DNA from: an uncultured archaeon
GTDB taxonomy: Archaea; Thermoproteota; EX4484-205; JAAOZP01
Direction of reading: 5' to 3'
NCBI GenBank assembly: GCA_938045545.1
Contig: CALIBN010000006.1
Coordinates: 32,001-96,000 of the forward strand
DNA length: 64,000 nucleotides
Part shown: positions 41,065 to 62,049 of the stretch, piece after piece
Numbering within the stretch: position 1 is the first letter of the stretch
Layout: every line of letters begins with the position of its first letter
Notes under the pieces: generated by a model
The model's database searches: none
Seen by the model: only the letters and a program-made list of their open reading frames with translations
What the model was told of the DNA's origin: nothing
Position numbers and translations under genes: made by a program

Positions 41065-41101
41065 GATTTAAATATTGCTCACGTTTTTCAGAAACAAGGC
41101 T

Positions 41102-42124
41102 ATGAGTAGAAAGGATGAGAAAATCAGGGTTCTAATAACGATACCTAGAGCCCTCTACAAGAAGGTCTCAAGGGTTGAAGACGAGGAGACGCTTAAGTCT
41201 TTTTCAGAATGCGTTTTCAACCCATTGGACAGGAATCTTACCGAGGAGGAGCTGTCACAGCTCATAGTTGACGTAGACGGGTGTATTACAAGCTGGGGCT
41301 CTCCAAGGTTCACCGAAGCAGTTTTGAATAACGCTAACAGGCTTAAAATCATTGGCCACGCTGCTGGAAGCGTTAAACCCTACGTGACAGACGAGGTTTT
41401 CAAGAAAGGAATAGTGGTTGTTAACGCTGCTTCAACAATAGCCAAACCCGTGGCGGAGTTTACCCTCGCGATGATTCTGAACTGTTTAAGGGGAATACCG
41501 AAGTATGTTGAAGCAATGAGTAGAAGAGCCTGGAGCTATAGGGATCAGAAGAGCTTTACGACTTATGATTTGAGAGGGAAGACGGTGGGAATAATAGGGT
41601 TTGGCGCTGTTGCCAGTGAATTGGTGAAACTGCTTAAACCGTTCGAAGTCGACGTGATTGTACACGACCCATATGTGGAGCCCAGCCAAGCTGCTGCATG
41701 CGGTGTTAGGAAGGCTGATTTAAACGGGCTGCTTTCACGTTCAGACGTGGTTACTCTCCATGCTGCTTCAACCCCGGAGACCCGTCACATGATTGGCGAG
41801 AAAGAGTTGAGACTGATGAAGCCTACAGCCTACCTGATAAACACGTCCAGAGGTGCCCTCATAGATGAGAACGCCCTGGTTAAAGCTTTAAAGGAGAAAT
41901 GGATTGCGGGGGCTGCTCTGGATGTTTTTGAACAGGAGCCTTTGGAAACCAGTAGTCCACTGTACGACTTGGAGAACGTGTTTTTAACACCCCATGTGGC
42001 AGGAGGGTCTGATGAGAGTATGAGAAATTTGTTCGGCACTATCGTCGAGGATTTTAAAAGATTCTTTTCAGGAGAGAAGCCTGTCAACACAGTGCTATAC
42101 GAGAGGCTTAAAGTTCTTGCCTGA
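41102..42124 (+). CDS. D-2-hydroxyacid dehydrogenase family protein
   Basis: HAAGSVK, GIIGFGAVA, INTSRG, ALDVFEQEP, TPHVAG; start at ATG 41102. Confidence 0.9.
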   Translation: MSRKDEKIRVLITIPRALYKKVSRVEDEETLKSFSECVFNPLDRNLTEEELSQLIVDVDGCITSWGSPRFTEAVLNNANRLKIIGHAAGSVKPYVTDEVFKKGIVVVNAASTIAKPVAEFTLAMILNCLRGIPKYVEAMSRRAWSYRDQKSFTTYDLRGKTVGIIGFGAVASELVKLLKPFEVDVIVHDPYVEPSQAAACGVRKADLNGLLSRSDVVTLHAASTPETRHMIGEKELRLMKPTAYLINTSRGALIDENALVKALKEKWIAGAALDVFEQEPLETSSPLYDLENVFLTPHVAGGSDESMRNLFGTIVEDFKRFFSGEKPVNTVLYERLKVLA

Positions 42125-44046: not shown

Positions 44047-44616
44047 CTAATCAATTCTCAAGACATGGTTAAATCTACTCATCAACATATCCAGTAGCCT
44101 TTTCTCTTTTTCAGAAATCCCTGAGCCTTTATCGTCCATTAGAGATTTATTGTAATATGAGTTTGCGACAACAGTGTTGGATAATTCTAGGCATTCGATT
44201 ATTTTAAAAACGTTGCCAGAGTGCAAATAGATTGAGAGATCATTAATTAAGAGAATTGGCGTAAGTTTCATTAAAAATTCTTCAATCAGGGGTTCAATCA
44301 TCATTCTGTTAAACTCTGCAAGACTGAGAACTTCCTCTTTACTTTTGCCTTCTATTCTCGGAGCTCTTATTATCTGCGGTATCAAATATCTGACTTTGAA
44401 AACTTTAGGAGTATAGGAAGAAATCCTGCCTCCTACTCCTGGCACGGTTGTGGGCGACATGTCTATTACTGTTATATCGCTAGGTGAAACTTTTTCAAGA
44501 AGCCTATCTAGTATTTCTGCAGTAATTTTTGTTTTACCACTACCCATCTTTCCAAGTATCAATATCTTTCTTCCTAAAACGTCTTGAATAATATTATTCA
44601 ATGTCCTTAAGAGCAC
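44047..44616 (-). CDS. Small P-loop NTPase of unknown function
   Basis: ILILGKMGSGKT, LLINDLSIYL; overlaps the end of thiW. Confidence 0.65.
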   Translation of the reverse strand: MLLRTLNNIIQDVLGRKILILGKMGSGKTKITAEILDRLLEKVSPSDITVIDMSPTTVPGVGGRISSYTPKVFKVRYLIPQIIRAPRIEGKSKEEVLSLAEFNRMMIEPLIEEFLMKLTPILLINDLSIYLHSGNVFKIIECLELSNTVVANSYYNKSLMDDKGSGISEKEKRLLDMLMSRFNHVLRID

Positions 44617-45139
44617 CTACTTTATCTAAAGCCAAGGCTAATAATATTCCAATAATGCATCCACTCACAGAGCTTAACGCCCATCCCAGATACAGAGGCA
44701 GCAGTGCACCAAACCTTGATTGCAAAACTGCTCCGAAGAAAGGATCAACTATATACCATGAAACAGTACCACCTATGAAAACTGTCCCTACCGGCTCTCC
44801 TAATGACGCAAGAACAATTGCCCTTCTAATTTCAAACCTCTTCTTAAGTAGGATGTATAAAAATCCAACGACCAGTCCTCCTGGGATCCCGCCGGGATAA
44901 GCAAAAACCGTTCCCAATCCAAGCATTATTCGTAAAGTACCGACAATAATTGCACAGAGAGAAGCCCACAATGGGCCAACCATTATCCCGGCTAAAACAT
45001 TGATCACATGTTGACCTGGAAAAGCCTTTGTTGGACCCCATTGGAACCATGCTACTGGAGAAACAGCTAAAGCAATAGCTGAAAACAATGCTGAGAGCAC
45101 GAGCTTCCTTAAAGACTTGCCTTTAATCGTTTTAATCAC
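44594..45139 (-). CDS. thiW: ECF transporter S component ThiW
   Basis: FPGQHVINVLAG..GP, GTVFAYPGG, GEPVGT. Confidence 0.9.
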   Translation of the reverse strand: MIKTIKGKSLRKLVLSALFSAIALAVSPVAWFQWGPTKAFPGQHVINVLAGIMVGPLWASLCAIIVGTLRIMLGLGTVFAYPGGIPGGLVVGFLYILLKKRFEIRRAIVLASLGEPVGTVFIGGTVSWYIVDPFFGAVLQSRFGALLPLYLGWALSSVSGCIIGILLALALDKVGALKDIE

Positions 45140-46496
45140 CCAATTCGGAAGCTATCATTAATACTTTAGTAGCTACTTCAACAGCGTTTCTGCCAAGTAT
45201 TCTTACCATTGGTTCTTTGCCAACATCCCCCAGGTCGTATATTACGTCCGGTATTTTTCCAGCATTTTCAATGGCTTTTCCAACACCCCATGGTAGGCTT
45301 TCCCCCTCCTTAGCTTTAACTTCTTCAGGCTCTTTTCTTCTGTCAAAAGATGAAACTGTTAACTTCAATGATTTACATGCTTCAACTATCTCACTAGAGT
45401 ATTTTATATTCATGGCTGCTCTCCACTCCTCTTCATACTCCATCACCTTCAAAACTACTCTGGCTACGTGTGAAGAAGCACCGAACTCGGGGCCTCTAAT
45501 AGCAAGTATCCTGTCCCCTAATTTAATAAGTCTCCCAGGTATTCCAGCCACATCTGATACGGAATTGGCATACCGCTTGGGTAAGGCCATGACTATGTTG
45601 CTTCCAACCTCAGGAATCAGCTTCGCAATTTCTGATGACTCCAGCATCTTTACAGCCTTAGACAAATTCTCAATGACTCTGTATTTTTCGGCATCCCTCT
45701 CCATCCATGCTGTCGGATTAACTGGCCCATGTCCCTTGCCAATGTTTAAACCATATTCTATGGCGAGCTGGATGAATTTTTTAGCCTCTTCTAAGGCTTC
45801 CATAATGTTCTTGCCTTTAGCAAGCCCTGCGGCAATTGCTGCAGAGAAGCTACATCCTGTTCCATGCGTATTCCTCGTATCAATCCTGCTGCCATGCAGT
45901 TCATGAAACTCTCCGCCACTGTAAACTATGTCAACAGCTTCTTTGTTTTTCTCCAAATGGCCTCCTTTAACGACGACTGCCCTAGGACCTAATTCGGCGA
46001 TCCTTTCAGCAGCAGCCTGCATATCGTCCAGTTTTGAAATTTTCAACCCGCTTAAAACCTCGGCCTCGAATATGTTTGGAGTAACTACTGTTGCCACGGG
46101 TAAAAGCGTCTTCTTCACAGATTCCTCAGCCTCAGGCTTGAGCAAGCGGGCCCCGCTTTTAGCAACCATTACCGGATCCACAACCAACGGAAAACCGTAT
46201 TCTCGGACCTTTTTCGCAACTAGTTCTATTACCTCTTTTCTATGAAGCATGCCTGTCTTAGCAGCATCTATACCGATGTCTTCGAAGACGACATCTATCT
46301 GTTTTTCCACAATGCTTAGCTCCACATCCTGTATGGCAAAGACGCCAACAGTATTCTGTGCAGTTATTGCCGTTAATGCCACGGTTCCATGTACCCCCAT
46401 AACAGAGAATGTTTTAAGGTCAGCCTCTATTCCTGCCCCCCCACCAGAATCGCTTCCAGCTATAGTCATAGCAACAGGAATCCTCTTAGCCTTCAT
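45132..46496 (-). CDS. thiD: Bifunctional HMP/HMP-P kinase and thiamine-phosphate synthase ThiDN
   Basis: [32 protein letters not shown]; ThiN domain [20 protein letters not shown]. Confidence 0.95.
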
Positions 46497-46516
46497 CTCT
46501 TATGCAAGCCGAAGTA

Positions 46517-46536
46517 AACATGTTTATAAACATGTT
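46517..46536. promoter_or_regulatory. Perfect 20-bp palindrome centred on a bidirectional TATA box; candidate operator
   Basis: AACATGTTTA|TAAACATGTT between the divergent thiDN and regulator genes. Confidence 0.65.
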
Positions 46537-46551
46537 GGCAACGTATTTTTT

Positions 46552-46943
46552 ATGAAAACGCTTACGAGTACGTTATAAAAAGCTACTTGCCTCAGTTGAG
46601 AGCGAGGATAGTTAGAGAGCTCATCGAGTCTCACGGTTGGAGTATAACGAGTGCAGTTAAGGCAATAGGGATCTCCTCGACTGCAGCCGCAAAGTACAAG
46701 AGGATAATAGCGACATCAAGCGGTTATTATAGCATAAGTTTAGATTCGTTCTCGAGAAGCTTTGCCGAGAGAATATTGAAAAACGAGCTTACGCCAAGCA
46801 GTTTCATAGAAGAAGTGTGCTTAAAGTGCATTTAGGAAAGAGCGAGAGGAAGCATTTGTAAGCTTCACAGAAAAGTTCAACCACAGCTTGAAAGCTGTAG
46901 AAGTTGTTTCAAAGTATTTCAGAAAATGACTGAGCGCGCATAG
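46552..46943 (+). pseudogene. Disrupted HTH and Cys/His zinc-finger transcriptional regulator (COG2522/ThiR N-domain-like)
   Basis: ATG 46552 MKT, 1-nt loss near 46561, then [21 protein letters not shown]...CLKCI; TAG at 46833-46835, then in frame ERARGSICKLH...CRSC. Confidence 0.7.
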
Positions 46944-47001
46944 GAAGTATGTCAAGCGTAATGGCGTTTTTATGCTTGATGTCTGGAAAGCTCGAAAATA
47001 C

Positions 47002-47964
47002 TCACCAGCCTTTTAAAGCAGCCTCCTTTAAGACCCCGGCTGGAGGGTTTAACCCTGCCTCTCTAAAAGCTATTAAAAGTGCGCCCACGGCAGGAGGGTA
47101 TGCCGGTCTTTTAACATTAATCTTACCGTATTCTAATGAAAGGTGCTTCCTAATTCTTCTAGCCAGGATGTCCGAATGATGGTTAAACATTCCCCCTACA
47201 AGGTAAATGTTCAACTCGTCTCCACGGGTCAGCTTCATCTTTCTAGCCACAGCCAACACGCCTCTCGAGAGGGATTTCGCAGCATCCTCAATTATGCACC
47301 TGGCAACCACATCGCCTTTCTCAGCCTCAGCCTTAACTATTTTCGCGAAGAGCGCTATACGCTCCTTCCTCATCTCGTGGACACGCCTAGCCAATTCCTC
47401 CATACTCCTGGCTTTAAAGAAACTTTTAGCCTCCTCCTCAAGGCTCGTCCTACTTCCCCTTCCATCGTAAGACTGGAATGCTGCTCTCAAAGCCTCGATG
47501 GAAACAGAGTATGCCCCACCCTCATCGTTGAAAACGTGGCCCCATCCTCCTGCTCTGAAAAATGAGCCTCCCGACACTCCTACAACAACCGAGCCTGTTC
47601 CAACCACGACTATAATACCCTGCTCCCCCAACCCTAAGCAGGCTGCTGCAGCAGCCTCAACATCGCTTTTGACCAGGATTTTACCAGCCCTAATCCTGTT
47701 TCGAAACAGTTTTTCAAGCATTCTCCTTGCTGTCCAGGCTCCCGAAAGACATAGTGCTACAACTTCAGCCTCGACGCACCCGAGTTTCCCCAGGGCTCCG
47801 TTAAACGCTCTCACCACTGAAAGCAGAGTTGTTTCAGGGCCTGCTGAAAGAATGTTTGACGGCCCGGATTTGCATGCGGCAACACGCCAACTGCCGGTTT
47901 CAACGGCCAGACACCTTGTTGAGCTCGCACCCCCGTCTACACCGGCTACAACAATGCGTTTCAA
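47002..47964 (-). CDS. BadF/BadG-type N-acetylhexosamine kinase (MurK/GlcNAc kinase-like)
   Basis: GVDGGASSTR, SDV, GTGSV, RAGGWGH.F.DEGGAY, LVGGMF. Confidence 0.85.
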   Translation of the reverse strand: MKRIVVAGVDGGASSTRCLAVETGSWRVAACKSGPSNILSAGPETTLLSVVRAFNGALGKLGCVEAEVVALCLSGAWTARRMLEKLFRNRIRAGKILVKSDVEAAAAACLGLGEQGIIVVVGTGSVVVGVSGGSFFRAGGWGHVFNDEGGAYSVSIEALRAAFQSYDGRGSRTSLEEEAKSFFKARSMEELARRVHEMRKERIALFAKIVKAEAEKGDVVARCIIEDAAKSLSRGVLAVARKMKLTRGDELNIYLVGGMFNHHSDILARRIRKHLSLEYGKINVKRPAYPPAVGALLIAFREAGLNPPAGVLKEAALKGW

Positions 47965-49109
47965 CCGTAGAGAAGAACCCTTCTGACCCTAGCTTTAAAC
48001 CTTTTCTGCTCGTCTCTCAGTCTCAAAACAATCTCTTCGACGCTAACGCCGTTTAAGATGTTTCTCCTGACCTTGCTGTCGCCGAGCAGCCTATCCATCT
48101 TCCCGTGTTCAACTTCTAACTCCCTCGGGTGAACCTCTAGCACAGTTTGAAGGATGTTGACCCCAACCTGGAAAGGCTTAATCTTCCTCTGGTCTTCCAC
48201 CACAAGGTGGATCCCTCTGCAAACCTTTCCCTCGTGTTTGGAAGAGGAAGGGATGAACCTGGTCTCCATGAGGAGGCAATCTTTACCCAGCTTACGTCTC
48301 AACACGGGGGCGACCTCCGCTGATTTAAACCATGGAGCACCGAAGACTTCAAAAGGCTTGTATGTTCCCCTGCCTTCAGAAAGGTTTGTAGCCTCCAGAA
48401 GAACCATCCCGGAATAGAGTAGCGCGGCAACCGGCGTCGGTATTGCGGGCGAAGGATAAACCCAGGGCAGGCCCGTGTCGCAGAAGTACATCATCCTGCT
48501 CCATCCTGAAAGCCTCACCACCAAGGGGGGTTTCAAGCCCTTTTCGAAAGCATAGAGGAGAGCCAGCTCGCCGGGAGTCATGCCGTATCTAAGGGGAACG
48601 TAATACGGTCCAACGAAGGATTCAAGCCCCTTTTTTAAAACAGGGCCCTCCACGGTGAGACCACCCAGTGGGTTAGGCCTGTCGAGAATCATGAAGCCGA
48701 CGCTGTTCTTCGACGCCTCCTCTAAACAGTTTAGCATCGTGGATATGTAAGTGTATGTTCTGCATCCAACGTCTTGAATATCGTAGATCAGCAGGTCTAG
48801 CTCCTTAAGCGTCTCGACACTGGGCTTTCTCCGCGTGCCGTATAGGCTTTGAACACTAACCCCGTTTAAAGAAAGTTTTTCAGACTCCACTGGCTCACCG
48901 GCACCGTAGGCTCCCCAAAGCCCGTGTTCAGGAGTAAAGATGGTTTTAACACGTATCCCTTTTTCTAAGAGCCGTATGTAAGACGGGTCTAATCTTCTCG
49001 TCACCGAAGTATGGTTTACGATAAGCCCTATGTTTAGACGGGAAAGCCTTTCAAGCAGTTTTCTCCTCTCGAGAAGGACGTCCAGCCCCGGCTTAACCCT
49101 GCTTGCCAA
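47961..49109 (-). CDS. namZ: Exo-beta-N-acetylmuramidase NamZ (DUF1343/YbbC); no signal peptide
   Basis: NHTS, PEHG, SLYG, DIQDVGCRTYTYISTM, LDRPNP, GMTPGELA, PSP, SEGRGT, FGAPW. Confidence 0.9.
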   Translation of the reverse strand: MASRVKPGLDVLLERRKLLERLSRLNIGLIVNHTSVTRRLDPSYIRLLEKGIRVKTIFTPEHGLWGAYGAGEPVESEKLSLNGVSVQSLYGTRRKPSVETLKELDLLIYDIQDVGCRTYTYISTMLNCLEEASKNSVGFMILDRPNPLGGLTVEGPVLKKGLESFVGPYYVPLRYGMTPGELALLYAFEKGLKPPLVVRLSGWSRMMYFCDTGLPWVYPSPAIPTPVAALLYSGMVLLEATNLSEGRGTYKPFEVFGAPWFKSAEVAPVLRRKLGKDCLLMETRFIPSSSKHEGKVCRGIHLVVEDQRKIKPFQVGVNILQTVLEVHPRELEVEHGKMDRLLGDSKVRRNILNGVSVEEIVLRLRDEQKRFKARVRRVLLYG

Positions 49110-49110
49110 A

Positions 49111-49824
49111 CTACTCGCCCAGGAGGCTTTTCCTCCTTATCCTCTTAACACCCCAGTCTCCGAAGGTCATGAACGCTTCAGCGTATTGGAAACCGACTTC
49201 AAGCCCTCTGATCCTTTTTAAGCAGGAATAGTAATCAACGTAGTTGAACCCGCTGTACTTTCCAGATGTAAAATCGTAAGTCTTAATCACATCCAAATAT
49301 TTTTCGAAAACACTGCCGACGTCAACGTACACCTCCGGCTGGAAGCCCTGCGGGTCCTCCCAGTTCTCAGGATAGTAAAGCTCAACCGACCTACTGTGCC
49401 TCCCCTCCGCCCTCTGCTCTCCCGTGAAGCTTTCGAAAGCCTGTATGGCTAGAAGGTGGCACGCAAGATGATCAGGATGATAGCTTCCCTTCCAGTGAAT
49501 CAGAACCGCGTCAGGCATGAACTCTGAAAGAGCCTTATACATTTTCTGCTTAACCTCCTCCGCATCGTAGGGAACGCCCTCCACGCAACCCAGGAAACCC
49601 ACTTCAGCATCCAGCTTCCTAGACGCTTCTAAAGCCTGCTTAACCCTTGTTTCAGCATACTCCTCAGCAGATAACCCTGGCGGACGAGCCCATTTTCCAG
49701 AAGGCTTAAACATGTGGAGTATTAGACATCTTCCCCCCTCCTCAGCGTTTCTCAGAATCGACCCGCCCGCTGTGATTTCAACATCCCCAGTGTGGGCGCT
49801 AAACGCTAGTATTTTAATGCCCAA
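49111..49824 (-). CDS. PIG-L/LmbE family N-deacetylase
   Basis: AHTGDVEI, HWKGSYHPDH, ENWED, YAEAF. Confidence 0.8.
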   Translation of the reverse strand: MGIKILAFSAHTGDVEITAGGSILRNAEEGGRCLILHMFKPSGKWARPPGLSAEEYAETRVKQALEASRKLDAEVGFLGCVEGVPYDAEEVKQKMYKALSEFMPDAVLIHWKGSYHPDHLACHLLAIQAFESFTGEQRAEGRHSRSVELYYPENWEDPQGFQPEVYVDVGSVFEKYLDVIKTYDFTSGKYSGFNYVDYYSCLKRIRGLEVGFQYAEAFMTFGDWGVKRIRRKSLLGE

Positions 49825-49830
49825 CGTTGG

Positions 49831-50751
49831 TCACCCTCTTTCAATACTCTTGGTGAAAACCGCGAACCTACGGGCTTCAGACATGCCGTTCCTCACGTAG
49901 AAACTGTAGTTTCTACCCCCGCCCCAGGCCAACCAAGCATTCTTACCGCCGAGAGACTGGATCAGCCTTAGACACCTGTGGAACAGGACCGTCCCAACCC
50001 CCTTGTTCCTATGCTCCTCAGCAACCCCGAAAGGGCCGAAATGCTCTATCAGCCCGTCGGTAGCTATTTGACAATAGCCAACTATCTCCCCGCCGTGGAA
50101 AGCAAGAGTAAACCAGTCGAGACACCTAGGATATTTCTCCATCGTCCTCCTAGCGTCCTCGTACCACCATGGGAACCTGGCTTTAAGGAAGAGAAGAAGC
50201 TCCAACACGTGTTCATCGTCAAGCTGCCGGAATAAGTAGCCTTCTCCAGAAAGCCTTCTCTCAAGTTCTAAAACCTCTCTTGGTGTCGCGTATCCCATAA
50301 GCGACATGCTCATTGAAACCGATTCCCTGCTTGACTCACTGTAGCCGTTCTTGGTGAAGAAGCCTATCGCCCCCGGGTAAGCCTTAACGTCAACCCCTGG
50401 AACAAGGTATCTCGGCCCGCCTGAGAAGACTACTCTCTTAACCCCTTTCCCTCTGAGTTTTTCCTCAACCGTTGCAAGCATTCTCGACCCGACGCCCATG
50501 CCTCTAAACCCGTTTTTCACAGCAAGTATGTTTATGTATCCTGTTTCACCCCTTGTTACGGAGTAGATGAAGCCGACCACCCTGCCCTCGGACTCTGACA
50601 CGATGCAGAGATCAGGATCATAATTCTCCTGCAGGAGAACCCTGTACCTGAAGGACTCCTCGTTAAGCCTGTCGAGAGGCATCGCGTCATTGATGATTTC
50701 TAGAACAGGCCTGAGATCCCGGCCTTTAAAACTTCTTTCCTCCAGGTTCAA
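49831..50751 (-). CDS. Tandem GNAT N-acetyltransferase (GlmA-like)
   Basis: Two acetyl-CoA motifs FRGMGVG and HRNKGVG; YLVPGVD; HFGPFGV. Confidence 0.8.
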   Translation of the reverse strand: MNLEERSFKGRDLRPVLEIINDAMPLDRLNEESFRYRVLLQENYDPDLCIVSESEGRVVGFIYSVTRGETGYINILAVKNGFRGMGVGSRMLATVEEKLRGKGVKRVVFSGGPRYLVPGVDVKAYPGAIGFFTKNGYSESSRESVSMSMSLMGYATPREVLELERRLSGEGYLFRQLDDEHVLELLLFLKARFPWWYEDARRTMEKYPRCLDWFTLAFHGGEIVGYCQIATDGLIEHFGPFGVAEEHRNKGVGTVLFHRCLRLIQSLGGKNAWLAWGGGRNYSFYVRNGMSEARRFAVFTKSIERG

Positions 50752-50835
50752 CGAAAATCTGTTTGAACTGCTACATATAAGTGTTTTTCAAACCCAAGGT
50801 TTATCACCCACCGGGTTAACGTATAACGGCTTAAC

Positions 50836-51831
50836 ATGGTTTCAAGACTGGAGAGGATAGACGCGGAGTTTGAAAAACTGTTGACGGAGCATAGAAACCC
50901 TAGGACGGTTAGGATAGACAGGGTTGAGGTGGTTGAGGCCTTGAAGATGATAAACAGGGAGGACAAGAAGGTGGCTAGGGCTGTTGAACTAGAGATACCG
51001 AGGATCGCCAGGGCTGTTGAAAGCGTCGTCAAAGCCTTTAAGAAAGGCGGTAGGCTGATTTACGTTGGCGCCGGCACGAGCGGCAGGATAGGAGTCATAG
51101 ACGCGGCCGAGTGTCCACCTACCTTCGGCACAAGCCCAAGCATGGTTCAGGCTCTGATAGCGGGTGGAAGAAGAGCCATGTTCAGGGCTGTTGAAGGGGC
51201 TGAGGACAACATGAAGGCCGGGGTTAACGATATCAAGCGTCTTAAGGTTTCCGAGAGGGATGTCGTCATAGGGCTGAGCGCCTCGGGCAGGGCACCCTAC
51301 GTGGCAGGGGCTCTTAAGGAGGCTAGGCGAAGAGGTGCTGAAACCATTGCCGTCGCAACAGTGCCTAACCCTAAGATCGGGGTCTACGCCAACATACTGA
51401 TAACGCCAATAGTTGGTCCAGAAGCGATAGCGGGGTCTACTAGGATGAAGGCGGGTACTGCTGAGAAGATGGTGCTAAACATGATTTCAACAGTCTCGAT
51501 GGTCAGGATTGGAAAGGTGTATACGAACCTGATGATAGACATTAAGCCTTTAAGCGTGAAGCTTAGGTCACGGGCTAGGAGGCTGCTACGCTTTTTCGCA
51601 GGAGTCTCAAGCGAAGAGGCAGAGGAAATATACAGGGAGAGCAGGTATGATTTGAAGGTTGCTCTAGTCATGGCTTTAGCGAGGGTTGAGGCAGGCCAGG
51701 CAAGAAAAGCTTTGAGGAAAAGCCAGGGCCTAGTCTGGAGGGCTATAAGGCTGATTCAGGAAGAAAGCACGAGACCCAGGTTTAAAACTCGAAAACAACA
51801 ACGTCGTAAACCATCAGGCTGTCCAGAGTGA
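50836..51831 (+). CDS. murQ: N-acetylmuramic acid 6-phosphate etherase
   Basis: TEHRNP, GAGTSGRIG..DAAECPPTFG, VEGAED, GSTRMKAGTA.KMVLN, GKVY.NLM.D. Confidence 0.93.
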   Translation: MVSRLERIDAEFEKLLTEHRNPRTVRIDRVEVVEALKMINREDKKVARAVELEIPRIARAVESVVKAFKKGGRLIYVGAGTSGRIGVIDAAECPPTFGTSPSMVQALIAGGRRAMFRAVEGAEDNMKAGVNDIKRLKVSERDVVIGLSASGRAPYVAGALKEARRRGAETIAVATVPNPKIGVYANILITPIVGPEAIAGSTRMKAGTAEKMVLNMISTVSMVRIGKVYTNLMIDIKPLSVKLRSRARRLLRFFAGVSSEEAEEIYRESRYDLKVALVMALARVEAGQARKALRKSQGLVWRAIRLIQEESTRPRFKTRKQQRRKPSGCPE

Positions 51832-53968
51832 ATTCAAAACAGTCGGGGAGCTCCCGGACGGGGAGCATGCCTCTATCGCTAAGCTTAAACACCCTCCTGG
51901 GCCGGCTACCCCTGATTCTGACTTTAATATTGTGCACACTGGTTATGCTTGAAATAGGCCTCTGCATGTCTCCAGTAGTATTAACAAGGTGGACAAGAAT
52001 TCTGCCCGTGCTTCTCTGCTCCCTGACTTCGAACAGCACCGTCTCGGGAGCGTCAACCTCCACGACAGGAGGCTTACGCATCGCAAACCTAATGCAGCCG
52101 GCATAAACCTGCGAGATATCCGGCATCCTGTACCTGGAGTAGAAGTCTTCAATAAGCGAGGAGAAGTAGATCGTCCTGCTCTCGCCGTGGCTACTGCAGA
52201 TGATTGCAGCATAGTTCGAAACCCCTCTGGGAGCCGCGTAGTAGGCGCCTATCGGATTCATGAAAAAGCATATCGCCTCAGCATCCCGCCTGCTGAAAGC
52301 CTTAAGGCTATACACTGGTCTAGGGATTAACGCGCCAACAGGCATTGAGAAGATTTTCTTTTCAGGCTCTGCAAGCTTCATGTATTCCTCCCCGACCCTG
52401 GGAAGCATCATGCCGTCGCATCTTTCTACGCCTAGAATACTCCAGAGCGGGTTTTCAAGCCTATGGTCCCCATACTCGTCATAACAACCGGTTTCAAAGG
52501 AGCAGACCAAGCTTCCACCCTTTCCAATGAAGCTTCTAACGCTGCGGATCTGTTCATCGCTCAAGCAGGCAGAGTTTGGAAGAATAAGCAGAGAGTATTT
52601 TTCAAGCTCGCCTTTGGCAAGAGCGTCATCCAGAATCACGTCGTACGGAATATGGCTTCGGCTTAAAATGGTTGCAGCGCCCAGTATAGAGTTAGTGTAG
52701 ATCTCGTCGCATATTTCCTTTCTCGCCTTAAGGTCTGTTTTCCTCCTGCCAGTACTCCCCTCTATCCTAAGGTCCCTCTCAACACCAGTCCCCGGATCCA
52801 AGTATAGTTCCCTGAGCTCAGACAAGTAGAACGTGGATGTTTGCGTTGAGACCAGCAGGGCTACTTCAGCCTTCGAGACAGTGTCAGCATAGTATTCTTC
52901 GTTTCTCGACAGGAAGCCGAGAATGTTTCTCATAGGGGTTAAGGCATCCTCCAGCCTAGTGTCTAAAGCGTAGTCGAATACTGCGAACCAAGGGTTTGCA
53001 CCGCAGGAAACGGTTTGCGCAACCGAGACCTCAGCCTCGAAACGTGGCAGGGGAACGTAGTGCCAGCTGCCCAGCGCGTGATGGCTGAAGACAACCGCCG
53101 GCTTACCTTTGGCGGCGAGGTGCTTAGCCTCAAGCGTCCAGAAGATTAGAGGCACGTTTTGAGAACCAGGATGGAAGAACGCCTCTGCGCCGTTAAAATC
53201 CTCGTATTCGCTTAGCTTTTCAATGTTGCGGGCAACCCTCCAGCTGCCGGGCCACCAGGCCCCACCGTTAAGAAATATTACACCCTCCTCGTTAACCCTC
53301 TTAACAGCTTGACGAGCATCCCTGAGAAACTCAACCATAGACTCTTCTCTGAACTCTATGAATCTCTTCCAGAGAGGGTTCGACCAGTCTTCCCAGCTGG
53401 GAGGCTCGCTGCCATGCTTTTCCGAAAACTTTTCCCGGCATGACTTGCAGTAGCAGCACCCTGGGAAAACAACCGGCCCATCCAGGAAAACACCGTCAAT
53501 CCCTGTTTTCATAGCCTCCTCTATGAGTTCGAAAGCCCAGTTTCTCCACCCTGTGTTCACGCAGAAAGTCGTCCCGGATCCATATAGGGGATGCACGCTA
53601 CCATAGCTTCTACCGTCTTCTATGCGTTGCTCCCAATCAGCATGCCTACGTCCAAACTCATACGAATACCAGTGCATGTTCAAGTATGCTAAGACCCTGA
53701 TCCCATGCTTCCTGGCATGAGGCAAGTATTCCCTCACCAGGTCGAAATCACCCAGCCCAGGATACTTTTCGAACTTCGGCGTGTTGAAAGTGGTTAAGTA
53801 GCCCAGCCCCGGGGCTGTCCCCGGCGTACCTATCACCCATTCGCAGTTAATATTCCACTCCTCCTTCTTCCACCCGGCCAGCTTATCCATGTCTGATTCA
53901 GCCATCCTGCCCAGAGCATCCAAGTAGTCGAGCCTCATCATCCTAACGGGTTTCCGCCACCACTCCAA
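51782..53968 (-). CDS. Uncharacterised glycoside hydrolase (GHL6/GH42-like TIM barrel plus trimerisation-type domain)
   Basis: ARKHGIRVLAY, IDGVFLDG, CYCKSCREKF, IPYDVI, LILPNSACLSDEQ. Confidence 0.7.
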   Translation of the reverse strand: MEWWRKPVRMMRLDYLDALGRMAESDMDKLAGWKKEEWNINCEWVIGTPGTAPGLGYLTTFNTPKFEKYPGLGDFDLVREYLPHARKHGIRVLAYLNMHWYSYEFGRRHADWEQRIEDGRSYGSVHPLYGSGTTFCVNTGWRNWAFELIEEAMKTGIDGVFLDGPVVFPGCCYCKSCREKFSEKHGSEPPSWEDWSNPLWKRFIEFREESMVEFLRDARQAVKRVNEEGVIFLNGGAWWPGSWRVARNIEKLSEYEDFNGAEAFFHPGSQNVPLIFWTLEAKHLAAKGKPAVVFSHHALGSWHYVPLPRFEAEVSVAQTVSCGANPWFAVFDYALDTRLEDALTPMRNILGFLSRNEEYYADTVSKAEVALLVSTQTSTFYLSELRELYLDPGTGVERDLRIEGSTGRRKTDLKARKEICDEIYTNSILGAATILSRSHIPYDVILDDALAKGELEKYSLLILPNSACLSDEQIRSVRSFIGKGGSLVCSFETGCYDEYGDHRLENPLWSILGVERCDGMMLPRVGEEYMKLAEPEKKIFSMPVGALIPRPVYSLKAFSRRDAEAICFFMNPIGAYYAAPRGVSNYAAIICSSHGESRTIYFSSLIEDFYSRYRMPDISQVYAGCIRFAMRKPPVVEVDAPETVLFEVREQRSTGRILVHLVNTTGDMQRPISSITSVHNIKVRIRGSRPRRVFKLSDRGMLPVRELPDCFEFTLDSLMVYDVVVFEF

Positions 53969-54280
53969 GCCTATCGCCGTTTATGCGACGAGATGTTGAA
54001 AAGCTATTTTAAAACATTTATGCCTCATGCAAACCACAGTCATGAAGCTTAGAGCACTACCATCTCGTGATGCGGCAAGTTAAACAGAGAATTGTCTGCA
54101 ATACTCCCGCATCTCTTCAGAAAGCTTCAAGCGATTCATCTACTTGCTGACGCAACAATGGAGACGGTTTCTCCAGCATTGCGATGAGCCCATTTCCGGA
54201 TTTAAAGTATTTTTACCTAGTTTAAGTTTATAGCTTGGAACTAATACAGTAGACTAGTTAGAAAGCACGGAGGAAAAATA

Positions 54281-55399
54281 TTGGTCGAAGATGCAACGAG
54301 GGAACAGAAGGTACACGGTGTACAAATGTCGATTATAATCCCCACTTACATGGAAGCAGAAACCCTTTCTAAGCTTGTAGAAAGAGTAGAGAAGACTTTG
54401 GTGGAAACAGATTTCGAGATCATCATTGTCGACGATAATAGTCCCGATGGGACAGCTGACATCGCTGAGGGGCTTGGCATGAAGTTTGGAAATATCAGGG
54501 TGATAAGAAGGCCTGGAAAGCTGGGGTTGGGCTCTGCAGTGATGGATGGACTAAAGTTGGCGAGATCACAGCTGATCGCTGTTATGGACGCCGATTTGCA
54601 GCATCCTCCGGAAGTCCTAAAACATATGTTGGAGGAGTTAGGAAAAGGTTGTGATGTTGTCATCGCCTCAAGGTATGTTAAGGGTGGTGGAGCCCAGGGC
54701 CTCAGCGTGTGGAGGCGATTTATATCTAAAGGAGCCACCGTCCTTGCGCACGTTTCCCTGCCGAAGACGAGCCGCGTTTCAGACCCGCTATCTGGATATT
54801 TCGCGCTCAACAAGAAAGTGATTCATGGAATTAAGCTGAACCCGATCGGTTACAAGATCCTGCTCGAAATCCTTGTGAAAGGAAAATACGGAAGGGTCTG
54901 CGAAATACCTTACAACCTTCAGCATAGGGCTGGGGGTAGAAGTAAACTCGGTTTACGCGAGATTTTGCTTTATTTGAAACACTTATACTCATTGACAAAG
55001 GAGGCAAGCGAACATAGGAGGCTTATAAACTTCGTGCTGGTTGGGTTGGCGGGAATCCTAGTTAATGAGACCATCTTATGGTTTTTGACTGAACACTTAT
55101 ATCTGCATTATGTGTTTTCCGCTTCGATCAGCGCAGAAGTATCTGTTTTATCAAACTTCGCTCTGAACGAGGTTTTCACGTTCAGGGACCTGGTAGCAGA
55201 TTCCTCTTTAAGATCGGTGTTTAGAAGAGTCTTTGAATACAACTGGACAAGAATAGTGGGGATATGCATAGAGCTGTTCACATTGCATGTTTTAACCATT
55301 TTCGCGGGACTACACTATCTTCTTGCAAACCTTGTGGGTATTGCTTTAAGCTTGGCTTGGGGTTATTCAACCAGCATCTCAATTGTATGGAAGAGTTAG
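54281..55399 (+). CDS. GT2 dolichol-phosphate mannose synthase-like glycosyltransferase fused to a GtrA-like domain
   Basis: SIIIPTY.E, VDDNSPDGT, MDADLQHPP, ASRY, DPLSGYF; C-terminal FVLVGLAGILVNE..SNFALNE.FTF. Confidence 0.88.
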   Translation: MVEDATREQKVHGVQMSIIIPTYMEAETLSKLVERVEKTLVETDFEIIIVDDNSPDGTADIAEGLGMKFGNIRVIRRPGKLGLGSAVMDGLKLARSQLIAVMDADLQHPPEVLKHMLEELGKGCDVVIASRYVKGGGAQGLSVWRRFISKGATVLAHVSLPKTSRVSDPLSGYFALNKKVIHGIKLNPIGYKILLEILVKGKYGRVCEIPYNLQHRAGGRSKLGLREILLYLKHLYSLTKEASEHRRLINFVLVGLAGILVNETILWFLTEHLYLHYVFSASISAEVSVLSNFALNEVFTFRDLVADSSLRSVFRRVFEYNWTRIVGICIELFTLHVLTIFAGLHYLLANLVGIALSLAWGYSTSISIVWKS

Positions 55400-58090: not shown

Positions 58091-60016
58091 TTACTTCTTT
58101 CTGGATGCCACGAGCCAGCCGATTGCAACGCCTATTATAAGCGCTACTATGCCAATGCCCCCGGCACTAACCACATCGAAACCTGGTGCTCCGGCAACTG
58201 TAGTAGTAACAGTGATTGTTACAGTTACAGCAGTAGGCGGCGACTTCGGCTGTATCCTAGCTAGTACGAAGAAGAACGTAGGCCACCAGTTGTAAGGCAC
58301 TATGTACATATTGTCTTGAGAAGGCCAGCCAACCCAGTATTTGGTTGAGAAAGTCTGTACGAACGTCTTCTCAACCGCGGGAACAGTTATGCAGTCCCTC
58401 TGCACTATGTAAAAGGCTTCTTCCAGTAACGAGGCGGTACGCGGATGGTCTAATGGTATTGTCCAAAGCTCATCTATTATGGCATCTAGCTCCGGGTTTC
58501 TGTACCTTGGATTAGCACCCTGGATACCGGGAGAGTTGGAAGTACTACCGATAGGAGCGTACCATTTGCTGTGAAATACGTCTAGGGTTGACACAGGGTC
58601 ACCCATGATCCATCCCGGGGTGCAGTGAGTACATATCCTTATGTCGTATTGGCCAAGCGCTGAGAGATCACCCAGCAGCGCACCTCCTATTTTAGTAGTG
58701 GCGTCTATTCCGACTGCCTTTAGTTCCTCCACTAGGTCATAACCTATGTAGTGGGCAGCGTCTTCACCCAGCAGAAGCTCTACAGTGAACTTTGTCCCGT
58801 TAGGCAGCTCTCTAAACCCGTCTTTATCTATGTCCCGGAACCCTAGGGAGTCCAATATTTGTTTCGCCTTTTCAGGGTCGTATTTCAATTCGAAACCAAG
58901 TTCATTCTTGATTCTTTCTAGCCCCCTGTTAATCATGGGTTTATACGGATCGAAAACAGCCCAAGAGTATGGCATCGGAAGAAGCCAATCTGTCGTCGGA
59001 GTGCCATTCGATAACGCATAAGCCCTAGCTAAGGCAGGACGGTTCACTAAATAAGCTATGGCCCATCTGAACTCCCTTATGCTAAACGGATACTTGGCCA
59101 CGTTAAACGAGTTAATCCCATAGGGACATGGGTCGGTATATGGAGCTATAACAATATCAATTGTCCTCCTCATAGCAGTACTGATCATCTCCCAAGTAAA
59201 TATGTGGGGAAGCACGACATCGACATCACCCCTAACGAAGTCCTCAAGATCCACGTCGGCTGCAGGAATGCCACGCCATATCACGTATTTGGGAGTTGGG
59301 AAAACCCCCATATTTTTACCCCAGTAATCATCTCTCCTCTCCCATATGAACATCGGTATTTCTGGATAAACTGCATAAAGCTTGTAGGGGCCCGTGTCTA
59401 CGGGTGGCCAATTCGCAAAGGTTTTCGGATCAACATTCTTCCATATGTGCTCCGGGACTATGGGGAAATAGCTCCACATCCTGAATGTATGATGGAACCT
59501 TGGGTTAGGCTTCTTCAAGTGTACAACCAGTGTATAGTCGTCAGGCATTTCAACCGATTCAACCCATTCGTTAACATAACTTGAACCTCCAAAGTCAGGA
59601 TTCTGTTTCAGCATGTTCATAGTGAATGCAATATCTCTTGCAGTATATGGATGGCCGTCATTCCAAGTAACACCCCTCCTGATGTACAGGGTAAAGGTTC
59701 TGTAATCATCGCTATATTTCCACCCAGTTACTCTCCAGTATATGATTTCGCCAGTAGCATAGTTAATGTACCAGTCCCATTCTTGTGCTATTTGGTGCCA
59801 TCCAGAACCCCACTGCGAACCTTGAGGTATGAAGGGATTCGCTTTGTCAAATACCGTGAAGTAAGGTGAAAGCATTATCTCGGTAATTACTGTTTGATCC
59901 CGGGGGACAGGCAGAGCCGGTTGAGCCTTAACTGGCATTGCTAAGGGCATCAAGAAGGCAAATACAATTATTGATATGAAAATCGATTTAGCCATCCTTT
60001 TTAACAACATTTTCAC
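58091..60016 (-). CDS. ABC substrate-binding protein family 5 (peptide/oligosaccharide) with Thr-rich linker and C-terminal TM anchor
   Basis: Signal peptide; RRGVTWNDGHPYTARDI.FT, TGPYKL, YDPEKAKQILD, YWVGWP; TAVTVTITVTTTV-APGF-TM-RKK. Confidence 0.9.
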   Translation of the reverse strand: MKMLLKRMAKSIFISIIVFAFLMPLAMPVKAQPALPVPRDQTVITEIMLSPYFTVFDKANPFIPQGSQWGSGWHQIAQEWDWYINYATGEIIYWRVTGWKYSDDYRTFTLYIRRGVTWNDGHPYTARDIAFTMNMLKQNPDFGGSSYVNEWVESVEMPDDYTLVVHLKKPNPRFHHTFRMWSYFPIVPEHIWKNVDPKTFANWPPVDTGPYKLYAVYPEIPMFIWERRDDYWGKNMGVFPTPKYVIWRGIPAADVDLEDFVRGDVDVVLPHIFTWEMISTAMRRTIDIVIAPYTDPCPYGINSFNVAKYPFSIREFRWAIAYLVNRPALARAYALSNGTPTTDWLLPMPYSWAVFDPYKPMINRGLERIKNELGFELKYDPEKAKQILDSLGFRDIDKDGFRELPNGTKFTVELLLGEDAAHYIGYDLVEELKAVGIDATTKIGGALLGDLSALGQYDIRICTHCTPGWIMGDPVSTLDVFHSKWYAPIGSTSNSPGIQGANPRYRNPELDAIIDELWTIPLDHPRTASLLEEAFYIVQRDCITVPAVEKTFVQTFSTKYWVGWPSQDNMYIVPYNWWPTFFFVLARIQPKSPPTAVTVTITVTTTVAGAPGFDVVSAGGIGIVALIIGVAIGWLVASRKK

Positions 60017-60132
60017 TCAAAGCATTATTAATTCAGGTACATATAAATCTTATGGTTAAAAAAGTAAACTCGACGGCCGGCGACAGAAAGCTTTTTATTT
60101 TAGATCTTTATCTTTCAAAGAAGGTAGAGTGA

Positions 60133-61152
60133 ATGACTAGTAAAAAACGCATTCTGCGCTATATGACGAAGCGTGTAATCGTCTACGTGATCACGTTATT
60201 CATATCATTCTCAATCGTGTTCTTATTCCTACGTTTGATACCGGGAGACCCTATAACACGATACTTGAGAATGCTTGAGCAGAGATACTCTTATTCAATG
60301 GAAATGCTGGATATTGTGGTAAAATGGAAGGCTGAGCTTGGTCTAGAAGGAGATCTATTTACACAATACTCGCGTTATATACAAAATTTATTCTTACGTT
60401 TAGATTTGGGCCCATCATTCGTGGCTTTCCCAACTCCGGTTCAGGATCTCATACTGACGAGGCTGCCGTGGACGATAGCACTCCTAGGAGTGGCAACTTT
60501 AATTTCTTGGAGTATCGGTACTTTAGCAGGGGTAATATTAGGTTGGAAGAGAGGCACTAAATTTGACTCCACGCTTTTTACAATAGCTCTCTGTATGTCT
60601 CAAGTACCATATTATATCGCCGCAATTTTTTTAGTTCTACTTTTAGCCTATGTTTTCCCTGTTTTTCCATCCAGATATGCTTTTTCACCTGGAGTTCAAA
60701 TAAAGCTCAGTCTCGACTTTATATCAAGTGTTTTATACCATTCTTTTCTTCCCGCATTATCCATAGTACTAACTTCTGCTTTTGGTTGGCTAATTTCCGC
60801 AAGGTTCCTTACCATTAGTATAATAGGTGAGGATTATCTTCTCTTTGCCCAAGCCAAAGGTCTAAAGGCAAACAGAGTCTTAAATAGGTACATTCTAAGA
60901 AATGCCTTATTACCGCAAGCCACAGGACTCGCCATGTCACTGGGCTTCATAGTAAATGGTGCTTACTTAGTGGAGTGGGTGTTTTCTTACCCAGGCATAG
61001 GAGGACTATTACAGTATGCTATAAATCTTGTTGACTATAATACTATCCAAGGAATCATATTGATGTCAATCTTTACTGTTCTCACAGCCAACCTTATAAT
61101 GGATCTGATTTACCCGTTGATAGACCCAAGAATAAGGTCTGGTGAGAGATGA
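60133..61152 (+). CDS. Opp/Dpp ABC permease, B subunit
   Basis: RLIPGDP, DLGPS, RLPWT, EDY..FAQAKGL, RNALLP, IDPRIR. Confidence 0.92.
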   Translation: MTSKKRILRYMTKRVIVYVITLFISFSIVFLFLRLIPGDPITRYLRMLEQRYSYSMEMLDIVVKWKAELGLEGDLFTQYSRYIQNLFLRLDLGPSFVAFPTPVQDLILTRLPWTIALLGVATLISWSIGTLAGVILGWKRGTKFDSTLFTIALCMSQVPYYIAAIFLVLLLAYVFPVFPSRYAFSPGVQIKLSLDFISSVLYHSFLPALSIVLTSAFGWLISARFLTISIIGEDYLLFAQAKGLKANRVLNRYILRNALLPQATGLAMSLGFIVNGAYLVEWVFSYPGIGGLLQYAINLVDYNTIQGIILMSIFTVLTANLIMDLIYPLIDPRIRSGER

Positions 61153-62042: not shown

Positions 62043-62049
62043 AAAATGG

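Follow-up and report, generated by a model that had tools for sequence, protein, structure and literature searches.

A six-gene cluster in an archaeon of the Thermoproteota probably encodes an old, bacterial-type catabolic route for peptidoglycan sugars

We analysed a stretch of 64,000 nucleotides from an uncultured archaeon of the Thermoproteota (assembly GCA_938045545.1; bases 32001-96000 of the 126,245-base contig CALIBN010000006.1), hereafter called the window, and in particular a cluster of six genes (47002-53968) that includes homologs of bacterial enzymes for the use of N-acetylmuramic acid (MurNAc). We consider it likely that the cluster specifies a cytoplasmic catabolic route for bacterial peptidoglycan sugars, and that it is a native, long-resident though accessory part of the archaeal genome. 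For an archaeon without a bacterial-type wall such a route points to feeding on bacterial remains. An initial annotation of the window had proposed the same, and the proposal is now supported by the identities of the genes, by a predicted cytoplasmic location of NamZ, by genes for the downstream steps elsewhere in the genome and by a search for MurB that found none, with all functions predicted from sequence. The assembly comprises 51 contigs and 2.03 Mb, with an estimated completeness of 92% and an estimated contamination of 1.37%; since the search of this 92%-complete assembly for MurB gave nothing, the host appears to make no murein and recycling of its own wall is not what the genes would serve.

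The open reading frames agree with the gene layout described earlier. On the minus strand, in order of transcription and with gaps of 6, 1 and -4 bases, lie the genes encoding: a tandem-GNAT acetyltransferase of the GlmA type (49831-50751, 306 amino acids, two GNAT stretches), a PIG-L/LmbE-family protein of a variant subfamily (49111-49824, 237 amino acids; PF02585, 3.8e-17), NamZ, of the GH171-type exo-beta-N-acetylmuramidase family (47961-49109, 382 amino acids; NamZ_N 1.7e-69, NamZ_C 8.3e-42), and a MurK-like sugar kinase of the BadF/BadG type (47002-47964, 320 amino acids; PF01869 BcrAD_BadFG, 1.1e-35). The gene for MurQ, the MurNAc 6-phosphate etherase, is divergent from these on the plus strand (50836-51831). 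Its start lies 84 bases from that of the acetyltransferase gene, and the intergenic region (50752-50835, read directly), which has TATA-like A/T-rich words about 26-32 bases upstream of both start codons, presumably holds both promoters; no RNA data set was listed that covers 46400-54400. A glycosidase-like three-domain protein (51782-53968, minus strand, 728 amino acids; GHL6 1.5e-13, Glyco_hydro_42M 1.4e-6) is encoded convergently to MurQ, the 3' ends overlapping by 50 bases. The identities proposed for the genes held in a comparison with hidden Markov models, in which BcrAD_BadFG, NamZ_N, NamZ_C and TIGR00274 were all matched. The arrangement of the six genes is far beyond chance, as it recurs in genomes of the same genus and, in a five-gene form, in two other archaeal families. 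A frame of 94 amino acids (50748-51032) was without any family match in the profile scan and is probably not a gene.

Both NamZ domains scored above the gathering score (NamZ_N 233.7 bits, cut-off 26.9; NamZ_C 144 bits, cut-off 25), and PDB 4k05 is a solved relative (3e-63). In an alignment with the 414-residue NamZ of Bacillus atrophaeus, E61 stands at position 92 and R247 at position 279, and both residues were kept in 12 of 12 aligned rows. For the enzyme of Bacillus subtilis, parts of one report (PMC8054146) propose Glu92, at the tip of strand 2, as catalytic and describe Arg279 as an exposed residue of the C-terminal domain. By this likeness, the archaeal protein would be a hydrolase of non-reducing terminal MurNAc. 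The Bacillus proteins start with a signal peptide of 23 residues, and in the window protein only 7 residues precede the conserved start, which leaves no space for one; the plain reading is that this NamZ would work in the cytoplasm, as had been supposed from its start directly at the catalytic domain. In an extension test, which asked for at least 20 possible N-terminal residues together with a hydrophobic 12-mer and is a crude, home-made measure rather than a signal-peptide predictor, none of 36 archaeal NamZ frames passed (median possible extension 7 residues), as against 36 of 79 bacterial frames (median 36 residues).

The kinase (PF01869, 123.9 bits) has as its best solved relative 8zo3, an 'N-acetylmuramic acid/N-acetylglucosamine kinase' (2e-41), with the hexokinase of Sulfolobus tokodaii (2e2n, 1.8e-27) and the human kinase of N-acetylglucosamine (GlcNAc) ranking behind it, and it scored below the equivalog cut-off of the Shewanella-type NagK (NagK_SO3507, NF046058; 86.9 bits against 370). 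We infer that it phosphorylates MurNAc and GlcNAc at C6. MurQ is the sole copy in the genome above its equivalog cut-off (TIGR00274, 365.4 bits against 302; PRK05441, 397.5 bits). It has PDB 4s12 as a solved relative (6.1e-86) and is 45% identical to MurQ of Escherichia coli K-12 by ungapped BLASTP. Its residues E92 and E123 align with E83 and E114 of the E. coli protein, which we take to be the two catalytic glutamates, and the enzyme is predicted to be a MurNAc 6-phosphate etherase that makes GlcNAc 6-phosphate and D-lactate. A gene for a D-isomer-specific 2-hydroxyacid dehydrogenase (41075-42124), below all equivalog cut-offs, is found near the cluster in five genomes of the genus; that its product might oxidise the D-lactate released by MurQ is pure conjecture.

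The initial annotation had left NagZ, an amidase and NagB or GlmD to be sought elsewhere in the genome, and the search retrieved: four GH3 genes, one of which stands beside a gene for a Glucosamine_iso (NagB-type) protein; NagA (312 bits against a cut-off of 225.65); a broken Amidase_2 gene; and AnmK (PF03702, 2.3e-89, 300 bits), which lies tail to tail with a gene of the beta-lactamase family PF00144 (the pair at 16192-18312 of contig C14). A second amino-sugar cluster on one strand of contig C7 (47553-52084) contains NagA, an acetyltransferase of the Antibiotic_NAT family, a major facilitator superfamily (MFS) transporter and a YdjC-family protein. The genome thus appears to have the steps that lead from MurNAc, anhydro-MurNAc and GlcNAc down to fructose 6-phosphate.

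Put together, the predicted route would run as follows. Peptidoglycan fragments freed by other organisms (MurNAc-GlcNAc, MurNAc, anhydro-MurNAc and pieces ending in glucosamine or GlcNAc) would be imported unphosphorylated, as they must be if NamZ is cytoplasmic and no phosphotransferase system (PTS) is present; no PTS gene occurs in the cluster. NamZ would take MurNAc off the non-reducing end of MurNAc-GlcNAc, the GlmA-type acetyltransferase would re-acetylate glucosamine, either free or terminal on de-N-acetylated fragments, and the MurK-like kinase would produce MurNAc 6-phosphate and GlcNAc 6-phosphate, of which the former would be turned by MurQ into GlcNAc 6-phosphate and D-lactate. AnmK would channel 1,6-anhydro-MurNAc into the MurQ step, and the beta-lactamase-family enzyme encoded beside it may strip stem peptides. 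NagA, or possibly the PIG-L protein, together with the NagB-like enzyme would finally take GlcNAc 6-phosphate to fructose 6-phosphate.

The GNAT and PIG-L proteins form a pair that is not always encoded together with the MurNAc enzymes. A profile built from seven archaeal orthologues of the GNAT protein matched, with positions 15-317 of its 326, residues 7-308 of PDB 5kga and 5kf1 (8.5e-23 and 1.2e-22), the latter of which is presumably GlmA of Clostridium acetobutylicum. The next match was to 4zm6, a fungal GH3 enzyme, in its C-terminal region (3.8e-18), and all others were at 2e-7 or weaker. That region of 4zm6 is a glucosamine N-acetyltransferase, likened to the C. acetobutylicum enzyme in parts of its description (PMC4680927). 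The window protein accordingly resembles glucosamine/glucosaminide N-acetyltransferases of the GlmA type. The initial annotation had called its partner a PIG-L deacetylase, and here the family membership stands (PF02585, 63.4 bits against a gathering score of 28.2) while the canonical deacetylase motif does not, so that deacetylase is a family name only: the protein is under every NCBIfam equivalog cut-off (BshB1, TIGR04001, 61.8 bits against 182.5) and lacks the first Asp of the HPDD motif. The second motif, H-x-D-H, is kept (HPDH at 116-119), with H116, D118 and H119 invariant in eight orthologues. The H-x-G-D form of the first motif was found in all eight aligned archaeal orthologues, which marks a conserved subfamily and not a decayed gene, and H-x-[GA]-D was read in 75 of 80 metagenome loci, with five unread. 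Diacetylchitobiose deacetylases are weak solved relatives (1.4e-4 to 2.6e-3). Most likely the protein is an amino-sugar N-deacetylase that partners the GNAT protein, with GlcNAc 6-phosphate as one possible substrate.

Named genomes, nearly all of them bacterial, supplied 80 NamZ loci. Of these, 28 had MurQ and 22 the kinase in their flanks, only two had a gene like the tandem GNAT and none had a PIG-L gene of the H-x-G-D subfamily. The idea that the pair is an archaeal addition was overturned by a scan of metagenomes with the PIG-L profile, from which 80 loci were kept, many of them on short contigs, so that the counts of neighbours are lower bounds. The tandem GNAT gene stood directly upstream in at least 54 of them, and the flanks contained NamZ (at least 26), MurQ (at least 14), PF00144 (at least 12), the kinase (at least 11) and AnmK (at least 3). 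The 26 NamZ proteins were nearest to archaeal rows in 14 cases and to bacterial rows in 12 (Bacillota 6, Chloroflexota 5, Ignavibacteriota 1), and the pair is therefore common to both domains. Permeases of the Opp type adjoin the pair in metagenome loci L188-L190 and L257, and in L190 it heads an operon with a complete Opp/Dpp-type ATP-binding cassette (ABC) importer, without any MurNAc gene within 6 kb. In the same locus (L190, 636-3873) a flavin adenine dinucleotide-linked oxidase, of the D-lactate dehydrogenase type by its domains, and two electron-transfer flavoprotein genes face the GNAT-GNAT-PIG-L-Opp operon. The pair thus travels with imported amino-sugar substrates, often but not always together with MurNAc genes.

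The glycosidase was examined by way of an AlphaFold2 model (mean predicted local distance difference test score, pLDDT, 93.2), which shows a TIM barrel, followed by a trimerisation-type domain and a beta-sandwich. Foldseek ranked the GH151 fucosidase 6tvk first (2.6e-40; template modelling scores 0.76/0.83), then GH42 (near 1e-29) and GH164 enzymes. Residues D163, E262 and E311 are invariant and lie near strands of the barrel, and the identity to GH151, GH42 and GH164 (11-16%) is too low for a mapping onto the acid/base and nucleophile of a characterised family, which would be expected where strands 4 and 7 end. No signal peptide was seen by eye, and the protein is predicted to be a cytoplasmic member of the GHL6 family with a GH42/GH151-like fold. 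Outside the genus the closest relatives share 50-57% identity with it, and several carry names from Armatimonadota. In one genome of the genus (G009; L093, 12005-14436) the gene is absent and MurQ is followed directly by GT2, and in another (G002; L092, 5306-7500) it is split into two overlapping frames, which makes it a variable part of the cluster; it is a genus-specific addition, present only in this genus's version. A counterpart of the exo-beta-D-glucosaminidase of Thermococcus, which would suit a PIG-L deacetylase as a partner, was considered and rejected, as there was no such entry at E ≤ 0.01 among solved structures nor in the listed Foldseek ranks. The description of a glycoside hydrolase that converges on murQ thus stands as to position and family, and Foldseek gave the protein neither an assignable substrate nor a link to peptidoglycan.

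Several observations weigh against a dedicated and complete peptidoglycan-sugar route. The PIG-L protein reads AHTGD where Thermus TT1542 has HPDD, so that the first Asp is absent; in the A-H-P-D-D motif, as known from work on MshB, the first Asp is the general base and the second a metal ligand. Nor was there a clean pattern by which PIG-L would replace NagA among the 27 NamZ-bearing archaeal genomes: PIG-L without NagA was found in families f28, f39 and f48 (five genomes), both in six of the seven f12 genomes, neither in families f45, f27 and f49 (nine genomes), and NagA only in families f25, f46 and f60. Many of the metagenome loci with the pair contained neither NamZ nor MurQ in the fetched flanks. 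Within the genus, 9 of the 16 other genomes are without NamZ and MurQ. The PF00144 gene beside AnmK is cut by the end of its contig, and its role as an amidase is assumed by analogy with AmiE of B. subtilis. The one Amidase_2 match (MurNAc-L-Ala amidase type; contig C7, 909-2696) has two in-frame stops (TGA and TAG) and looks like a remnant. GH73, GH25 and SLT domains were not found in the 92%-complete genome, which leaves no recognisable way to cut intact walls. The candidate importer, an Opp/Dpp-type ABC system (58091-64000; a 641-residue binding protein at 58091-60016, two permeases and probable ATPases) that lies beyond the GT2 and PMT_2 genes, is a candidate by position alone, 4 kb off, and may be only a neighbour. 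Finally, according to PMC10465942, MurNAc binding by such kinases is not identifiable from their sequence.

A protein of 396 residues with GHL10/GHL6 similarity is encoded next to the broken Amidase_2 gene, and the genes around the kinase-NamZ pair of another genome (G023, L095), which encode GH1, PfkB, dehydrogenases, an M24 peptidase and an asparaginase, make up a mixed sugar island and include no transporter.

Some of these points would also fit a cluster that serves amino sugars in general, such as chitin or chitosan oligomers or other glycans, the host's own included, with NamZ, MurQ and AnmK acting on other substrates. The numerous metagenome loci in which the pair was seen without NamZ (found in 26 of 80) or MurQ (in 14) suggest that the pair may indeed have such a general role, and the same is suggested by the importer operon of L190, by the separate NagA/acetyltransferase/MFS/YdjC cluster, which is typical of chitobiose-type use, and by a glycosidase without a link to peptidoglycan. 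Short contigs undercount neighbours, however, and the MurNAc enzymes themselves argue for their usual substrates: MurQ is above its equivalog cut-off with both catalytic Glu kept, NamZ has kept its proposed catalytic pair, AnmK scores 300 bits, and the three co-occur across the class of the window (NamZ in 14, MurQ in 16 and AnmK in 15 of 26 genomes). We know of no substrate other than MurNAc derivatives for all three of these enzymes, and we hold a general amino-sugar function of the whole cluster to be unlikely.

The peptidoglycan-sugar route could also be real and yet serve an interaction with living bacteria, as partners, as prey or as a source of shed muropeptides, in place of the use of debris. 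The substrate of AnmK, 1,6-anhydro-MurNAc, is a turnover product of living Gram-negative walls, and AnmK is present in 15 of the 26 class genomes; furthermore, as no wall-cutting enzyme (GH73, GH25, SLT) was found, the fragments must come from other organisms. On the other hand, the window and the parts of the genome that were examined give no hint of functions for attachment, secretion or lysis, and sequence does not separate debris from shed fragments. An interaction of this kind seems to us quite improbable, and we retain feeding on bacterial remains as the preferred reading.

The archaeal origin of the surroundings, as claimed in the initial annotation, was borne out. Archaeal-type genes lie on both sides of the cluster in the contig, the window also encodes a DNA polymerase of family B as well as a ThiD-ThiN fusion that scores above its equivalog cut-off, and the genome contains RNA polymerase subunit N, which among 14 control genomes matched only the four archaeal ones. 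At NCBI, 'Thermoproteota archaeon' or 'Crenarchaeota archaeon' is the label on the nearest homologues for NamZ (66-89% identity), for PIG-L and for the glycosidase, and one partial homologue of the glycosidase (84% identity) is labelled 'Candidatus Brockarcha...'; by the names of nearest homologues alone, these point to a placement of the host near the Brockarchaeota group. The six (or five) cluster genes occur in the same order in four genomes of the genus (G007, G008, G002 and G009; 72-92% protein identity), and in a fifth (G016) the contig stops within the cluster. On the side of the kinase the flank in these genomes consists of genes for a peroxiredoxin, a 229-residue protein, a D-2-hydroxyacid dehydrogenase and a nitrilase-family protein, and on the opposite side two of the genomes have GT2 and PMT_2 genes, as in the window. 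The peroxiredoxin gene directly adjoins the kinase gene in all five. In the window the two are separated by an insertion (44047-46835) with ThiDN, ThiW, a gene of 189 amino acids and a frame of 82 amino acids; the latter (46587-46835) has no family match and is helix-turn-helix-like by eye.

The border with the insertion was recovered independently. A contig of 15,638 bases from a sequencing run (X3) of a study other than that of the possible source run covers 46300-54236, with 371 differing letters over some 7.6 kb (about 95% identity) and unrelated sequence past 54236, and it bridges the left border from ThiDN into the cluster with the same arrangement as in the window. In tetranucleotide distance from the genome mean the cluster ranks at the 78.5th percentile among 508 windows of 7 kb, its G+C content is 51.4% (genome 48.0%), and the codon-use distances of its six genes fall between the 8th and 71st percentile among 1057 long open reading frames, so that the codon style is host-like, as had been noted. 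Given the synteny within the genus, the bridging contig and the host-like composition and codon use, a chimeric join can be rejected. In another run (X6), one low-depth contig of 926 bases joins 48507 to 49435 and skips 927 bases, so that NamZ loses its N-terminal half and PIG-L its C-terminal part; a related population may carry such a deletion, or the join may be an artefact of assembly. Stretches that the contigs of runs X2, X5 and X6 leave uncovered were not counted as evidence.

Errors of binning do occur: a public contig labelled 'Nitrosopumilus sp.' (L049), with two NamZ genes, MurQ and the kinase, nests inside the Pirellulaceae in both the NamZ and the MurQ tree, with starred support, and probably represents planctomycete DNA that was assigned to an archaeal bin. 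That the present cluster is likewise bacterial DNA, misjoined or misbinned, would fit an assembly in 51 contigs with 1.37% estimated contamination and six protein families that are all mainly bacterial, but it is scarcely credible in view of the 126-kb contig with archaeal-type genes on either side, the cluster and flanks in five other genomes of the genus (one ending inside), the independent X3 contig, the ordinary composition, a NamZ gene in a one-contig archaeal genome and a distance to the nearest bacterial NamZ of about 42-47% identity, among the matches listed.

Within the genus, NamZ and MurQ were found in the same seven of the 16 other genomes, and AnmK in six of these seven and in one further genome. 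Of the 401 genomes in the phylum sample, 41 have NamZ; they belong to 20 of the 161 genera and include the one-contig genome. In families f12 and f28 the GNAT, PIG-L, NamZ, kinase and MurQ genes are adjacent, and a PF00144 gene is their neighbour; the murQ operon of E. coli also ends in a gene for a PF00144 protein, yfeW. Families f45, f39 and f27 have GH3, kinase, MurQ and NamZ genes together. In one genome of another archaeal family (G177; L169, 3334-9215) a gene of the diaminopimelate/ornithine decarboxylase family stands beside these four; its product could handle diaminopimelate from stem peptides, or the gene could be a chance neighbour.

An unrooted NamZ tree of 124 rows was built from 143 BLAST hits after removal of duplicates and of hits with less than 85% coverage; its bacterial sampling consists of the best 80 of at least 600 pattern matches, mostly bacteria, and is biased, and no donor is named. 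Here 33 archaeal rows group together (SH-aLRT 88) beside three Bacillota rows (93), and four archaeal rows fall outside. When all 37 archaeal rows were forced together, the likelihood was 28.9 log units above that of the free quick search (p-AU 0.824), so a single archaeal origin of NamZ is not rejected, which is not a proof of it. The MurQ tree (54 rows, after removal of duplicates and of hits with less than 80% coverage or 35% identity) unites the 16 rows of the class (SH-aLRT 94) and divides them along family lines, the pattern expected from vertical descent. Phylogeny and the gene order kept within the genus thus agree with the old acquisition that had been proposed, and the cluster is probably an old catabolic route of bacterial type in archaea.

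We compared this predicted route with known systems. The muropeptide rescue operon of B. subtilis has the order murQ-murR-murP-amiE-nagZ-namZ. As there (PMC8054146, in part), NamZ and MurQ are paired steps in the archaeon, with the proposed catalytic Glu and Arg of NamZ kept and with a beta-lactamase-family partner and GH3 enzymes encoded in the genome. In B. subtilis, however, NamZ is secreted with a signal peptide and uptake is by the phosphorylating PTS MurP, whereas the archaeal NamZ has no signal peptide, a kinase takes the place of the PTS and the host makes no murein, which excludes a recycling of self. In the salvage pathway of Tannerella forsythia, as described in parts of PMC10465942, MurNAc is handled by the transporter MurT, the kinase MurK and MurQ; as is predicted for the archaeon, this organism does not make MurNAc but takes it from other bacteria and passes the free sugar through a BadF-type kinase and then MurQ. 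The sugar is built into its own wall, whereas the archaeon has no wall to build, and any flow of MurNAc must there be catabolic. Among the solved relatives of the window kinase at E ≤ 0.001, T. forsythia MurK was not found. NamZ1 and NamZ2 are said to be part of MurNAc salvage in T. forsythia.

MurK and GlmA of C. acetobutylicum are a further parallel: the nearest solved relative of the window kinase is a MurNAc/GlcNAc kinase, and that of the acetyltransferase is, as a full-length match, the 328-residue tandem GNAT protein 5kf1/5kga; the clostridial GlmA was reportedly described by Reith and Mayer in 2011 as a glucosamine/glucosaminide N-acetyltransferase. The archaeal kinase and GNAT genes differ in that they share an operon with NamZ and PIG-L, and the identity to the solved proteins is low. 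The chitin route of Thermococcus kodakarensis uses a diacetylchitobiose deacetylase of the PIG-L family and the exo-beta-D-glucosaminidase GlmA. It resembles the present route as an archaeal cytoplasmic amino-sugar pathway with a PIG-L-family deacetylase, the diacetylchitobiose deacetylases being weakly related to the window protein, and differs in that it has no MurNAc enzymes and that its glucosaminidase is unmatched by the window glycosidase at E ≤ 0.01 and in the listed Foldseek ranks. The archaeal route would thus correspond to the variety of the bacterial MurQ pathway that depends on a kinase, known from Tannerella and Clostridium, and would differ from it by a murein-free host, an intracellular NamZ and a GNAT/PIG-L pair. 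In anaerobic ciliates, lateral gain of NamZ, nagB-PIGL and murQ has been read as serving the digestion of bacterial walls (parts of PMC13198582), so that murein-free hosts which acquired NamZ, a PIG-L-domain enzyme and MurQ are already in print. These are eukaryotic phagotrophs with scattered genes, whereas the archaeal genes form an operon-like cluster that was apparently inherited within a class.

No paper on NamZ, MurQ or the use of MurNAc in archaea was found in a literature search that did not extend to supplements, which possibly list such genes. Databases already label archaeal genes as NamZ family. In the main text of a paper on Brockarchaeota (PMC8065059) the terms peptidoglycan, muram-, murein, chitin and amino sugar are all absent, and for Bathyarchaeia one paper contains a one-sentence mention of carbohydrate esterases 'related to peptidoglycan degradation' (PMC13288992).

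A more far-reaching proposal, which we put forward as tentative and somewhat doubtful, is that several lineages of Thermoproteota inherit a complete cytoplasmic wall-sugar route from one old transfer, that GNAT and the H-x-G-D PIG-L protein constitute an undescribed two-enzyme module for peptidoglycan sugars that is common to archaea and some bacteria, and that the PIG-L reaction is new to its family, for instance a deacetylation of GlcNAc 6-phosphate or of a MurNAc-containing fragment. Dead microbial matter holds much carbon and nitrogen in the form of peptidoglycan, whose degradation is ascribed almost entirely to bacteria. A complete and inherited MurNAc route would, if true, bring archaea into the peptidoglycan part of the carbon cycle, NamZ being encoded by roughly one in ten of the genomes sampled from the phylum, and if there was a single old transfer the use of peptidoglycan as food would characterise these archaeal lineages as such and would not be the matter of a stray gene. 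The cluster would also exemplify how archaea took up a bacterial pathway of several genes and then apparently retained it by vertical descent, and it offers concrete enzymes for testing, including forms of NamZ predicted to work inside the cell and an acetyltransferase/PIG-L pair, as yet unstudied, which accompanies MurNAc genes in archaea and bacteria alike.

Elsewhere in the genome, on the contig that carries AnmK (C14, 10029-13526), a gene for an iron-sulfur/flavin oxidoreductase of 1165 amino acids is interrupted by an intein with a LAGLIDADG endonuclease domain.

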